DNA of 64,000 bases. It comes from a virus. The first letter of the stretch is position 1; each line of letters opens with the position of its first letter. The DNA lies in UHGV virus genome UHGV-0139776; one strand, written 5' to 3'. The notes beneath the pieces are model-generated. The model saw only the letters and a list, made by a program, of their open reading frames with translations. It was not told the origin of the DNA and did no database searches. The position numbers and the translations under genes are program-made. This document shows, one piece after another, positions 12,092 through 34,482 of this stretch.

Positions 12092-12108
12092 AATGCTCTA
12101 ATAAATTT
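12092..12108 (+). promoter_or_regulatory. C1-repressor operator-like site (16/17 match to ATTGCTCTAATAAATTT)
   Basis: Motif match; lies between the sim-like gene and the c4/icd/ant locus. Confidence 0.6.
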
Positions 12109-29682: not shown

Positions 29683-31943
29683 AAGAGCTGTGCTATGGAT
29701 CTGTTTGCAGTGGAATTGAAGCCGCGAGTATTGCCTGGGAACCGTTGGGTATGCGTCCGGCGTGGTTTGCTGAAATCGAGCCTTTTCCATCTGCCGTTCT
29801 TGCGCACCGCTGGCCCCATGTCGCCAACCTTGGCGACATGACAAAACTTGCCAAAAAAGTCCTGGCTGGGGAAATCGAATCCCCTGATGTGCTCGTCGGG
29901 GGAACACCTTGTCAGGCATTCAGTATCGCGGGCTTACGTGGTGGGCTTGATGATGAACGCGGCGCGCTAACTTTGAAGTATGTGGAGCTTGCAAATGCAA
30001 TTGACGACAAACGGTCTGAGTCCTTCCTCAAACCGACAGTTATCGTCTGGGAAAATGTCCCAGGAGTCCTGTCATCGGCAGATAACGCCTTCGGATGTTT
30101 CCTTGCCGGATTGGCTGGAGAAGATGCGCCATTTGAACCAGGTGATCGACCTGAATCAGGAAAAAGTAACGCGTTCTGGCGGTGGGATGGCAAAACCGGT
30201 TGCCATGCTCCAAAGTGGCCGCAGTGTGGTTGTATTTATGGACCGCAGCGAAAGGTGGCCTGGAGAATCCTTGATGCCCAATACTTCGGAGTGGCACAAC
30301 GACGCCGACGCGTGTTTGTTGTCGCAAGTGCTCGAACAGACCTCGATCCCGCAACGGTACTTTTTGAGTTCGAAGGCGTGCGCCGGGATATTGCGCCGAG
30401 CCGAAAAAAGAAGGAAATCGCTTCCGCCATTATTGCAAATGGCGCTGCAATCAGTGGCGAAAGCCTAAATCCATGCCTACACGCTGACATTCCACCCGGT
30501 ATGAAATCGACGAAAGCCGTAAACGCTTTCAGGATGGCAGCATTTGGGGAATATATTGACGATGAAACCGCATCGACAGTAAAGGCAAGAGATTTTAAAG
30601 ATGCCACTGACCTTGCCGTTTTTAGCAGCACAGGAGCAGGTTTTTGGTCAGAAGGGCATGGTACATTGCGGGCACGTGAGCAAGAAAGCCATGAGCATCT
30701 TGTTACATTGGCTTTTCCTGAGCGTATGAGCGGTACACAACATGCTGCAACTAAGAATACTTCACCATCTCTAATGGCTAAAAATCCAACAGCTGTTTGC
30801 TATGAAGTAAGAAACGCAGAAGTAGCTGTCCGCCGTCTTACCCCTGTCGAATGTGAAAGGCTGCAAGGTTTTCCTGATGGGCATACGTTGATCCCGACGG
30901 AAAAGCGTAAAAAAGTTAATTCAGATGAACTGGCATATCTTCGCAATCACTATCCAGATTTAAGCGAAGAAGAGGCCGCGATGCTTGCAGCTGACGGACC
31001 GCGTTACAAAGCGATCGGCAATAGTATGGCAATACCAGTAATGCGCTGGATTGGCGATCGGATTACTAAGGCCGTATGTCGGCAGAAAGAAGGAAGTAAA
31101 ACAAAAGAGCGAAAAGTTAAACCAGCGGCAGAATTCGAACGGTCCATATTCAAATGGGCTGGTGGAAAATTTGGTGTTCTGGAACAAATCTTTCGCTATT
31201 TGCCAGAAGGGAAGCGCCTGATTGAACCTTTCGTTGGTGGCGGAGCTGTCTTCATGAATGCCGGATACCAGGAAAATCTGCTAAATGATGTGAATGCTGA
31301 CCTGATTAACTTTTACAAGACTCTGCAACGCGAGGCGCATTCACTTATCACTCTGGCACATCGTTTCTTCCAGGACTACAACACACAGGAAGGATACCTG
31401 GCAGTACGGAATGCGTTTAACAAACAAGTCTATGATGATTTACATCGCGCAGCGGCGTTTTTGTTCCTGAACCGACATTGTTTTAACGGATTGACGCGTT
31501 ACAACCAGGCCGGTGAGTTCAATGTCGGTTATGGGAAGTATAAAACTCCGTATTTCCCATTACAGGAGATGGAAGCCTTCCTCGGTGCGGAAGGGCGGTC
31601 TGAGTTTGTATGCGGTGATTTTGCAGTGGTGATTGAAGCTGCCGGAGAAGGAGATGTCATCTTTTGCGATCCGCCGTATGAACCGCTTCCAAATACAGAG
31701 GGATTCACGAACTATTCCGGTCATGACTTTAAGTTTGAAGAGCAAAAACGCCTGGTGTCTCTGTTGACGGATGCTCATCGTCGAGGTGCAAAGGTTCTCA
31801 TTACTAACAGTGGCGCGCCAAATATCAGAGAGCTTTATCATGACAGTGGCTTCAGAGTGGAACCTCTTTTTGCCAGACGTTCTGTGTCTTGTAAGGGGGA
31901 CACTCGAGGTGTAGCTCATGACGTTTTAGGTATATTGCTCTAA
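29679..31943 (+). CDS. dmt: bifunctional DNA methyltransferase: N-terminal C5-cytosine MTase fused to C-terminal Dam-like N6-adenine MTase, 754 aa
   Basis: C5 motifs: GGTPCQAFS (IV), ENVPGVL (VI), QRRRRVFVV (VIII); Dam motifs: KWAGGK and CDPPYEP. Confidence 0.85.
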
Positions 31944-31964
31944 TAAATTTATTAGTGTAATATC
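31934..31964 (+). promoter_or_regulatory. perfect C1 operator (ATTGCTCTAATAAATTT) overlapping a near-consensus promoter (TTGCTC-N17-TAATAT)
   Basis: 17/17 operator match; -35 and -10 hexamers with 17-nt spacing. Confidence 0.65.
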
Positions 31965-31970
31965 GCCTCA

Positions 31971-32151
31971 ATGAATCGTGATTTATAGAGCGATTTAGCT
32001 GTTAGCCGCGACAGGCGCGGCGGTAAGCATGGCTGGGCCTAGTCCTCCCAGACAAACCACCGAGTTGCCAGGTTGACCATGCGCCTAAGTGGCAACTCCG
32101 AAGTGCGTTACGAGCTTCCAGTTTGCCCATCTTCGGGTGGGCGTTTTTTTT
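31971..32151 (+). ncRNA. candidate small RNA or leader transcript: promoter to UUCG-tetraloop terminator with no credible ORF
   Basis: Longest ATG-initiated ORFs that stop before the terminator encode 5 and 15 aa; bounded by the promoter at 31936-31964 and the terminator at 32125-32151. Confidence 0.3.
32125..32151 (+). terminator. rho-independent terminator (7-bp stem, UUCG loop, T8 run)
   Basis: GCCCATC-TTCG-GGTGGGC followed by GTTTTTTTT. Confidence 0.75.
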
Positions 32152-32327
32152 CAGGGTTTTCGTCATGGTTAGCGACTTTGCGGCGGTTTAGAAACTGACC
32201 ATTAAAGTAAATGCAAACGATGATCTGATGATGGTAGCGGCCTAAGAAGCCAGACGCCACGGGGTATGAGTCGTCCCCCGTCAAAAAATCGACCGCAGAG
32301 TGTCCCCGTCTGTGTATTAGGGAACGG

Positions 32328-32425
32328 GGAGACACAACAGGTAAGGGCGCTGGTGTGATTAACCAGATGAACGAGAAGGGGCCATCTGTTGGTCAGCGTC
32401 CTTTCCTGTTGCGTTTTCTTTTCAG
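32328..32425 (+). repeat. long imperfect hairpin, unit 0 of the ACAACAGGTAAGGG...CCTTTCCTGTTG family
   Basis: 5-prime arm CAACAGGTAAGGGCGCTGG pairs with TCAGCGTCCTTTCCTGTTG; followed by a T-rich tract. Confidence 0.5.
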
Positions 32426-32616
32426 CGTAACAGCGGTGCTTAACAGCACTTTGGGTACAGTTCCACGAATTTACGGGTATATCCCGTCATGCTGAAAGCG
32501 CTAATCACGCTGGAAGCCAGGGTTATGCATCCCCTGTTACCGAATTGCAGCCAGGGCGCGGTGCGCCGAAAAGCATACGGAGGTGGAAGCCCTCGCCGGA
32601 GACGTGCCCGGCAAGT

Positions 32617-32692
32617 GATGGTGTAGCTCAGCGGTTAGAGCGGTTGACTGTTAATCAACGGGTCGATGGTTCAAATCCATCCACCATCGCCA
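32617..32692 (+). tRNA. tRNA-Asn (anticodon GUU)
   Basis: Cloverleaf: acceptor GATGGTG/CACCATC, anticodon loop CUGUUAA, T-arm GGTTCAAATCC, encoded CCA. Confidence 0.85.
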
Positions 32693-32694
32693 AT

Positions 32695-32770
32695 GCCGGT
32701 TTAGCTCAGTTGGTAGAGCGCCTGCCTTGTAAGCAGGATGTCAGCGGTTCGAGTCCGTTAATCGGCACCA
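32695..32770 (+). tRNA. tRNA-Thr (anticodon UGU)
   Basis: Acceptor GCCGGTT/AATCGGC, anticodon loop CUUGUAA, T-arm GGTTCGAGTCC, encoded CCA. Confidence 0.85.
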
Positions 32771-33575
32771 GCACAACAGGTAAGGGTATTTTGCGACGTC
32801 GGAGATCGCCGAGCTTGGCAGAGGGTTCGAATCCCTACGAAGTACCCTTACCGTTGTGATGAATGCGCAGGCTGATGCGCGAAAGACATTGCAGCTATTG
32901 CGGAAAAGAGCTGTTCGGCGGGGCAATTAAACGCCCGTGAGAGTCTGAAATAACCGCAAGCCGGAGATCAGCACCGGTCATCACAACACAACAGGTAAGG
33001 GCATTCTCCCTTATGGGGCTTGGCTTAAATGCATCGAGTGCTCTTACCGTTGTGATGAAGTGCAGCTCTTTGAAGCAACCAGAAGATAAGCATCTGGCTT
33101 CACAACATAAACCGCAGGAACGACCAATAAACGGTAGTCCGTATGGAGAACACCCCGTTGAGGAAGAGGCCTGGCCGGAACCGTAACCGGCACTACAACG
33201 TTGAGAACACTGGCGTAACGGGGTCATATCCCAATCTACGAATAAATGTTGCGTTGCAGCGTGACAACCAGTGTTCTCAACATTGTGGTGAATGCACAGG
33301 CTGATGTGCCGCAACTACAGTAGTGCGCGCTTTGCGGGGCTTGCTACAACCCTGTGTCGGAGTTCAGCACCGACCATCACAGTTTGATTCTCTGGCATGA
33401 GCATAACGCTGAAATAAGTCCAGTCTGGTGCGGCCCGATCACCCGCCGTTAGCTCCACGAAACGGAGCACGTAACAGGTAAGAGCATTCTCCTGTAACGG
33501 GTTCATATCCCAATCTACAGGTCCACCAGGAATGCTCTTTCCGTTGCGGTGAATGCGGCTAAGCGCACGCGGAAC
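32771..33575 (+). repeat. array of four structured hairpin units (about 32776-32880, 32990-33066, 33194-33312, 33470-33572), each a long stem plus GTTGTGATGAATGC-type tail and short hairpin
   Basis: Conserved stem bases ACAACAGGTAAGRG / CTTACCGTTGTG, variable interiors, compensatory changes in the 3-prime mini-hairpin (GCGCA..TGCGC versus GCACA..TGTGC); unit 1 contains a T-arm-like GGGTTCGAATCCC. Confidence 0.5.
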
Positions 33576-33697
33576 AGTTAAAACAATCCTCCTTAATGGT
33601 TAAACATTCCGACGTTAATTGTTAACTGGTTAACGTCACCGGGAGGCACTCGGCACCGCAATCTAATAAATATGTCACTTTTATTGAGGGATAACCA

Positions 33698-34406: not shown

Positions 34407-34482
34407 GGCCCTTTAGCTCAGTGGTTAGAGCTGGCGACTCATAATCGCACGGTCACCGGTTCAAGTCCGGTAGGGGCCACCA
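34407..34482 (+). tRNA. tRNA with CAU anticodon (Met or lysidine-modified Ile)
   Basis: Acceptor GGCCCTT/AGGGGCC, anticodon loop CUCAUAA, T-arm GGTTCAAGTCC, encoded CCA. Confidence 0.8.

Follow-up and report, generated by a model that had tools for sequence, protein, structure and literature searches.

The stretch of DNA analyzed here (the window) is the 64,000-nucleotide (nt) virus genome UHGV-0139776, which belongs to a P1-like phage, and the interval of interest within it corresponds to the leader of the ban operon of phage P1 and the control region before it. Judged by sequence comparison, this leader is P1's copy of a cassette which consists of a structured RNA domain of about 95 nt, here called element A, then a short single-stranded module of variable sequence and finally an intrinsic terminator (Table 1). 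Reasoning largely by analogy with the dicF locus of prophage Qin, we assign a probability of roughly 55% to a reading in which relief of C1 repression would yield a short terminated RNA from the leader, possibly trimmed in the manner of DicF, together with read-through transcripts serving the tRNA genes, tciABC and ban. An earlier sequence-only reading of the interval had proposed a C1-controlled small RNA of about 180 nt. The observation behind it was confirmed. The interpretation is partly supported and was largely anticipated by existing annotation, and the value added here is the recognition of the structured domain in dicF-type cassettes and of what the leader terminator gates.

Element A in dicF-type cassettes

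Positions 31965-32160 were used as a BLAST query against 5426 complete Escherichia coli genomes. Full-length matches were returned from 493 genomes and represent P1-like plasmids, while a 95-nt match to window positions 32006-32100, at 76-80% identity (about 78%), was present in 4243 of the 5426 genomes with up to seven copies per genome. The K-12 copy (locus L003, 2263-2359) lies in prophage Qin directly upstream of mature dicF (2383-2435). Element A was also found in the lambdoid phages mEp460 and cdtI, in Stx2c phages, in a Salmonella phage and in an Actinobacillus phage, and a species-level scan recovered it from Escherichia, Shigella, Citrobacter, Trabulsiella, Serratia symbiotica, Erwinia and Izhakiella. 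Its position in lambdoid genomes is in the early-left operon, 3' of the repressor gene and 5' of dicB, kil or exo. A run of at least five T residues was located within 44-93 nt 3' of element A in all 102 distinct copies retrieved, with a GC-rich hairpin before the T run in the copies listed. The sequence between element A and the terminator varies: it may be DicF proper, one of several DicF-like variants or that of P1, element A being more conserved than the small-RNA module which lies 3' of it. No Rfam family was matched by element A, and nhmmer identified a single copy in the window. It is apparently a widespread, undescribed structured RNA domain of dicF-type cassettes. The likeness of the P1 leader to the dicF locus resides in this upstream domain and in the layout, not in DicF itself, and the 'dicF-like' label of the P1 record points to the wrong part.

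A consensus structure was obtained with RNAalifold on 18 representatives, the pseudoknot was added by hand, and covariation was counted on a more diverse set of copies (A4). In this set 94.7% of cells were paired, compared with 36-56% when the 3' partners were slid, and 12 pairs carried compensatory changes versus 0-4 in the slid controls; none of 500 shuffles matched the observed covariation. Hairpin II alone contributed six covarying pairs. The pseudoknot strands read G(U/C)AUGG and, in the loop of hairpin II, CCAU(A/G)C across copies. They are mostly invariant, and among 15 P1-like sequences the variable pair was seen as C-G, U-A and U.G, and in no case as C.A. The G.U pairs found in element A are compatible with the plus strand only. 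The model is that of a structured RNA with three hairpins and, probably, a pseudoknot. A closing stem, GUUGUGG/CCACAAC, was considered and not counted in P1 element A, as it is missing in P1 and in three other lineages and competes with a long imperfect hairpin (module H, described below); it is very clear, at 11 base pairs (bp), in an Escherichia fergusonii P1-like plasmid and likely in lambdoid phages.

Further copies of the cassette differ in their parts. The E. fergusonii plasmid NZ_CP099330 (locus L152, 634-745) carries a divergent element A without hairpin a, in which an 11-bp closing stem (GUUGUGGUUAU/AUAACCACAAC) and compensatory changes in hairpin II are seen; its 3' module differs from that of P1, and its terminator and the RNA gene beyond are the same as in P1. 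A C1 operator was not found in this 2,070-nt locus, which includes about 630 nt upstream of element A. In cassettes from Erwinia, Izhakiella, Trabulsiella, Serratia symbiotica and Salmonella phage F1055 (L148, L149, L146, L137 and L006) the large terminator hairpin holds a Shine-Dalgarno-like GGAG(G/A) and an ATG (ATGTTCTACCG...) which opens a reading frame through the terminator, and which could be a translated variant of the module.

With respect to coding capacity of the P1 leader itself, the longest ATG-initiated open reading frames (ORFs) that stop before the terminator encode 5 amino acids (31971-31988) and 15 amino acids (32029-32076), just as the sequence-only reading had stated. A small protein encoded on this stretch might still be argued from a 39-amino-acid ATG ORF on the plus strand (32079-32198), from a 54-amino-acid ORF on the minus strand (32002-32166), and from the JL22 and SJ46 records, which place 'hypothetical protein' features beneath the match. 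However, the 39-amino-acid ORF has no Shine-Dalgarno sequence, runs across the terminator, and has ATA in place of its start ATG in P7-type relatives. Insertions and deletions in hairpin I among P1-like phages, one of them of about 25 nt, are not multiples of three and break the minus-strand ORF; coding on either strand is therefore disfavoured. The lambdoid homologues, moreover, have in common RNA pairing with compensatory changes and no reading frame. We regard a leader-encoded protein as extremely improbable.

C1 control of the ban leader

Window positions 31800-32900 matched JL22, RCS47, P1, SJ46 and P7 at 96-99.8% identity by megablast, and the P1 record AF234172 was mapped onto the window with an offset of 36733. 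On this map dmt ends at 31943, and the features which follow 3' of the annotated 'dicF-like region' are tRNA-Asn, tRNA-Thr, plp and upl (both on the other strand), tciA, tciB, tciC, tRNA-Ile and ban. No further plus-strand promoter is annotated in AF234172 between Pban and ban, and the leader is therefore also obligatory for the tRNA-tciABC-ban operon. The P7 record extends Op(ban) control to the tRNAs.

The perfect 17/17 C1-operator motif reported by the sequence-only reading was recovered, and its C1-controlled promoter proved to be the annotated Pban/Op72 of the P1 ban operon. That reading had not included the second operator, which lies on the minus strand. Op72a and Op72b overlap by 6 bp and form the bivalent operator Op72ab/Obanab, annotated in both P1 and P7 and described in AF234172 as 'divalent C1-controlled operator Obanab; corresponds to former Op72ab; controls expression of ban'. 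Operator-like sites with at most three mismatches numbered nine in the window versus 0.42 expected, and none of 100 shuffles reached nine. Other such sites, with one to three mismatches, lie at 12092, 13762, 28412, 42277, 45901, 45950 and 48042, those at 45901 and 45950 forming a close inverted pair; presumably these are other known P1 Op sites.

The hexamers TTGCTC and TAATAT, separated by 17 nt, are exactly those of P1ban, so the operator-overlapped promoter of the sequence-only reading is real, but its description as strong did not hold: the consensus score is 3/6 plus 4/6, or 7/12, and P1ban is absent from the list produced by a promoter scan with a threshold of 9/12. Op72ab covers the -35 and -10 elements of P1ban, and transcription would be off in the lysogen and on after C1 inactivation, as the GenBank annotation of P1 and P7 and older literature indicate. 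From the position of the -10 element we infer a transcription start near 31970. As Pban/Op72 of the ban operon was already known, and the 'dicF-like' label and hence the small-RNA reading date from 2004, the earlier finding by itself adds little over existing annotation.

Table 1. Features of the ban control region and leader (positions in the window; AF234172 positions in the last column)
Feature	Position	Strand	Basis and remarks
Predicted second promoter P2ban	31918-31949	+	-35 31918-31923, -10 31944-31949; AF234172 68651-68682, prediction only
C1 operator Op72a (Obana)	31934-31950	+	17/17 to ATTGCTCTAATAAATTT; AF234172 68667-68683; annotated in P7 too
Promoter P1ban (sigma 70)	31935-31963	+	-35 TTGCTC 31935-31940, 17-nt spacer, -10 TAATAT 31958-31963; AF234172 68668-68696
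C1 operator Op72b (Obanb)	31945-31961	-	15/17; AF234172 68678-68694
Leader 5' end, small predicted hairpin	31970-32004	+	
Element A, conserved structured RNA domain common to lambdoid dicF loci	32005-32098	+	BLAST, alignments, RNAalifold
Hairpin a of element A	32005-32021	+	RNAalifold
Stem b of element A (3 bp)	32022-32024 with 32059-32061	+	RNAalifold; encloses hairpin I
Probable pseudoknot of element A	32027-32032 (GCAUGG) with 32077-32082 (CCAUGC)	+	Added by hand
Hairpin I of element A	32033-32051	+	RNAalifold
'dicF-like region' (misc_feature)	32058-32159		GenBank annotation; AF234172 68791-68892
Hairpin II of element A	32062-32098	+	RNAalifold
Mostly single-stranded module (CGAAGUGCGUUACGAGCUUCCAGUUU)	32099-32124	+	Occupies DicF's position in Qin; candidate small-RNA seed
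Intrinsic terminator	32125-32151	+	Stem GCCCAUC/GGUGGGC, UUCG loop (32125-32142), then G and U8

A short terminated RNA from the leader

The 182-nt leader folds at -65 kcal/mol (z = -1.9 versus shuffles), and at its 5' end only one of the 26 columns from 31970 to 31995 is variable among the 15 P1-like sequences. The UUCG-tetraloop terminator with T8 noted in the sequence-only reading was also detected by a terminator scan, with a stem of 7-8 bp and a hairpin energy of -12.8 kcal/mol. From this anatomy one would most simply predict a short transcript of about 180 nt that ends at the terminator, and a stable short RNA may be a product of the leader.

In the mechanism we propose, C1 bound at Op72ab would occlude P1ban, and derepression would allow transcription to start near 31970. 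Element A would fold within the first 130 nt of the transcript. If DicF is a guide, most polymerases would halt at 32151 to give the RNA of about 180 nt, which would perhaps be trimmed behind element A to leave a U-tailed, Hfq-type small RNA of about 50 nt with a P1-specific seed. Polymerases which read through would yield a downstream RNA with a tag frame like that of transfer-messenger RNA (tmRNA), then tRNA-Asn and tRNA-Thr, tciABC, tRNA-Ile and ban. Some polymerases must read through, since AF234172 shows no plus-strand promoter from Pban to ban and the P7 record places the tRNAs under Op(ban) control. Element A might act in cis on the choice between these outcomes or on maturation, by giving the small RNA a platform for its processing or stability or by helping polymerase to read through. 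The short-RNA and leader readings of the interval would be compatible, as DicF arises both by termination and from read-through transcripts.

A number of results weigh against the small-RNA part of this proposal. The DicF covariance model (RF00039) found no match in 31900-32650 at E values up to 10, while K-12 DicF, used as positive control with the same model, scored 76.7 bits; membership of the leader in the DicF family was rejected on these grounds. The variants of cdtI, Salmonella F1055 and ApPE4 likewise gave no match to the DicF model. Complementarity to the ftsZ ribosome-binding site was assessed with RNAduplex, on whole sequences and in sliding windows, and as the longest complementary run, each compared with shuffles. 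The P1 module offered only AGUUU/AAACU, a helix of 5 bp, and neither its duplex energy nor its longest run with ftsZ was better than in shuffles, although K-12 DicF was also non-significant by these crude measures, which are therefore uninformative. No target of the module emerged. Pairing of the module with the phage's own genes was at chance level, the two 11-nt complementarities (13231 and 33930) being about as expected. The 26-nt module is identical in P1 and P7, and the P1-like sequences are too alike for conservation of the seed to carry weight. Searches of the accessible literature found neither transcript mapping of this leader nor expression data for a stable short species, and its start site, termination efficiency and short RNA are predicted.

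The distribution of the terminator points in the same direction. In D6-like and E. fergusonii plasmids, whose upstream sequence is different or is without element A, the tag RNA also has this hairpin in front of it, and the terminator can thus be assigned to the downstream unit with at least as much reason as to a 'small-RNA gene'. Because the terminator hairpin travels with the tag RNA in plasmids which lack element A or carry another seed, seed and terminator may have come together in P1 through chance recombination and not through selection for a small-RNA gene. A conserved CAGUUU had been considered as a seed common to P1 and the DicF variants. This candidate was weakened by the finding that homology between P1, D6 and the E. 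fergusonii-type plasmids begins at UUUGCCC, which is part of the terminator unit.

Passage through the leader terminator

The sequence-only reading had allowed that the interval might instead be a leader or attenuator for the tRNA-tciA-ban operon. The first half of that alternative stands, as Pban is the only annotated promoter before ban, whereas attenuation is met by marginal energetics. In a classical attenuator the leader would pair with the 5' arm of the terminator and a signal would decide between termination and read-through. Nascent RNA extending to 32131 can indeed form a 7-bp helix between GGUAAGC (32022-32028) and GUUUGCC (32121-32127), which occupies the first bases of the terminator stem. 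This alternative fold is, however, just 0.5 kcal/mol better than a fold without the helix, and the full-length minimum free energy structure retains the terminator and is 10 kcal/mol better than any fold with the 3' arm unpaired. The helix is also in competition with stem b and the pseudoknot, for both of which there is covariation support, and neither a leader peptide, nor a riboswitch match in Rfam, nor an equivalent pairing in the K-12 cassette was found. On account of the energetics a simple attenuator is unlikely, and we consider this explanation improbable, if less so than a coding one.

A more serious competitor is that the interval is a leader only, in which element A would modify RNA polymerase during elongation, in the manner of the HK022 put RNAs, and the terminated product would be a by-product without function in trans. 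Polymerase would then get past the terminator at 32125-32151 and cross the 1.7 kb of RNA before tciA that is untranslated and exposed to Rho. The layout is consistent with such a need, since the operon's only annotated promoter is followed, at 180 nt, by a hairpin of -12.8 kcal/mol with U8, and its last gene lies 2.8 kb away. Element A is always found directly 5' of an intrinsic terminator with same-strand genes beyond it (dicB, kil or exo; in P1 the tRNAs and ban), its conservation exceeds that of the module behind it, and in P1 it lies right behind the promoter, like putL in HK022 (PMC9378689). An N-type antiterminator was not recognised among the neighbouring lambdoid ORFs by PHROGs. On the other hand, no similarity of element A to HK022 putL or putR was detected by blastn or nhmmer, and its three hairpins with a pseudoknot are unlike the two long stems of put. 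D6-like plasmids retain the terminator and the downstream genes without element A, and the boxA-like motif upstream of the lambdoid copies is a strand of the module H hairpin and gives no evidence of Nus recruitment. We hold this explanation to be possible but doubtful.

For these comparisons putL and putR were extracted from HK022, and their numbering was checked against the cryo-electron microscopy study (PMC9378689). The put RNAs form two stems, have conserved residues such as U28, G35 and U68, and allow polymerase to pass terminators in cis through contact with the zinc-binding domain of its beta' subunit. Element A as a relative of put was rejected on the absence of any blastn or nhmmer match and of the put-type two-stem structure. 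A lambda-type nut site was also rejected: the boxA-like GUGCUCU upstream of the lambdoid copies is the 3' strand of the module H hairpin, the match in P1 is poor, and no N-like protein was found in PHROGs. A bolder suggestion, which we think unlikely and put a little below the leader-only explanation, is that element A represents a new class of cis-acting RNA which confers termination resistance, like put in function and unrelated to it in sequence and fold. If this were true, P1 would have recruited element A behind Pban to carry polymerase past the terminator and across 1.7 kb of RNA genes that are not translated, namely the tmRNA-like tag RNA, the tRNAs and the tRNA-like units, and the 180-nt RNA would be the tip of a repressor-controlled array of structured RNAs and not a stand-alone small-RNA gene.

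RNA genes downstream of the leader

A conserved structured RNA, the tag RNA referred to above, occupies 32152-32345 and starts directly after the U tract of the terminator. Its tag frame at 32213-32245 reads GCA AAC GAU GAU CUG AUG AUG GUA GCG GCC UAA, or ANDDLMMVAA*; a tmRNA-like resume-codon context precedes it and the stop codon lies in the loop of a small hairpin. The tag encoded by E. coli tmRNA is ANDENYALAA. A pattern scan found members of the family in at least 120 IMG/VR contigs, with 21 distinct tag peptides from 27 distinct coding sequences, all of 10 codons plus stop and with many synonymous differences; ANDDVVLMAA, ANEEMYLAVA, ANDEQFLAVA and ANEERFLMAA are among the other tags. 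The hairpin after the tag stop forms a pseudoknot in which all four pairs covary. The permuted tmRNA model RF04321 scored below threshold, at 26 bits in the window and 34 bits (E = 2.6e-5) in a Klebsiella plasmid. A canonical tRNA-like domain was not called on the tag RNA by ARAGORN at default settings in the window or in 129 related loci. The resume context, an Ala-Ala-stop tag frame and a pseudoknot are thus present, and a joined tRNA-like domain with acceptor stem, G3-U70, T-arm and 3' CCA was not found. P1 is not listed in a 2014 survey of phage tmRNAs (PMC4131195).

Under relaxed settings (-ps80) ARAGORN reported a 'tmRNAp' in which part of element A served as the 5' tRNA-like domain; this was rejected, as lambdoid copies of element A occur without a downstream tag RNA. 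Element A is found upstream of the tag RNA in the P1 lineage only, and some members of the tag RNA family outside P1 have a consensus promoter where P1 has the leader terminator. Because no other plus-strand promoter is annotated before ban, the tag RNA, the tRNAs and ban depend in P1 on read-through from Pban.

The sequence CACAACAGGTAAGGG occurs in three exact copies, at 32333-32347, 32772-32786 and 32987-33001, versus 0.06 expected. The copies at 32333 and 32772 begin module H, a long imperfect hairpin of the form CACAACAGGUAAGRGC...GYGCUCUUUCCGUUGUG, which in other enterobacterial phages flanks the tag RNA, tRNA genes and element A as if separating RNA cassettes. It might be a processing or recombination signal. 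Inside one module H, at 32781-32855, lies a tRNA-like unit without an anticodon arm (fold z = -4.8), composed of an acceptor-like stem GGGUAUU/AGUACCC, a GCGACGUCGGAGAUCGC arm and a T-arm AGGGUUCGAAUCCCU; it was called neither by ARAGORN nor by the Rfam tRNA model. Homologous units stand directly 3' of the tag RNA in other phages (L158 and L199), and a Klebsiella plasmid (L150, 1693-1843) has a tRNA-like unit with a perfect tmRNA T-arm and a 3' CCA. The topology of the units at 32781-32855 and in L150 is non-canonical, and both are without G3-U70.

Further along the operon, ARAGORN called a tRNA-Met (CAT) at 34407-34482; the P1 record names the same gene tRNA-Ile2, which is ileX-like, the CAT anticodon being read as Ile after lysidine modification. 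Just upstream of tciA, at 33545-33660, an Rfam STnc100 match was found below threshold (42 bits against a gathering score of 47, E = 7e-7). In K-12 Qin an STnc100-like element separates dicF from dicB, and in an E. fergusonii P1-like plasmid one precedes terB. The beginning of the P1 ban operon thus resembles a lambdoid dicF-dicB leader into which RNA genes have been inserted.

Implications

Few bacterial small RNAs have been known for as long as DicF. In about 78% of complete E. coli genomes, and in many lambdoid phages, its neighbour is a domain which is supported by covariation, is probably pseudoknotted and has no Rfam family. A conserved partner domain in the DicF precursor bears directly on the production of DicF-type RNAs, or on the route of polymerase past them to dicB, kil or ban. 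Either role could be tested cleanly in P1, where element A stands immediately behind a promoter that is heat-inducible in c1.100 lysogens. The leader terminator, in addition, gates a downstream RNA with a tmRNA-like tag frame, and should the tag RNA engage ribosomes, the leader would make its expression dependent on C1 derepression.

Comparison with known systems

Like HK022 putL and putR, element A is a structured RNA in the range of 70-100 nt, placed early in a phage operon upstream of terminators that have to be passed, and no dedicated antiterminator protein is recognisable nearby. It differs in architecture: the two long stems of put RNA form a V with a triple helix (PMC9378689). Element A, by contrast, is built from three hairpins, a short stem that encloses hairpin I, and a probable pseudoknot.

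P1 immunity control already makes use of a processed small antisense RNA, c4. The other C1-controlled operons of P1 and c4/immI use the same repressor and operator consensus as the ban leader. Unlike the leader RNA proposed here, c4 is encoded in immI and acts on ant/icd.

Hfq-dependent small RNAs such as SroC, CpxQ and MicL share with the P1 leader a GC-rich terminator hairpin, a long U tail and a single-stranded stretch 5' of the hairpin. They are released from a longer RNA by termination and RNase E, for which the trimming suggested here would be the counterpart in P1; the precursor in P1, however, would be a primary transcript of about 180 nt without an upstream ORF.

The closest parallel is the DicF locus of the dicB operon in Qin (RF00039). 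Both have a structured segment followed by a short RNA module with an intrinsic terminator, and in both the later genes of the operon need read-through. DicF itself is generated by early termination and RNase E trimming and also by processing from read-through transcripts (PMC9438474). The STnc100-like element which follows dicF in Qin occurs further down the P1 operon. The sequence of the P1 module and its terminator hairpin differ from those of DicF, and while the Qin cassette lies about 900 nt into its operon, the P1 cassette stands directly behind a C1-repressed promoter.

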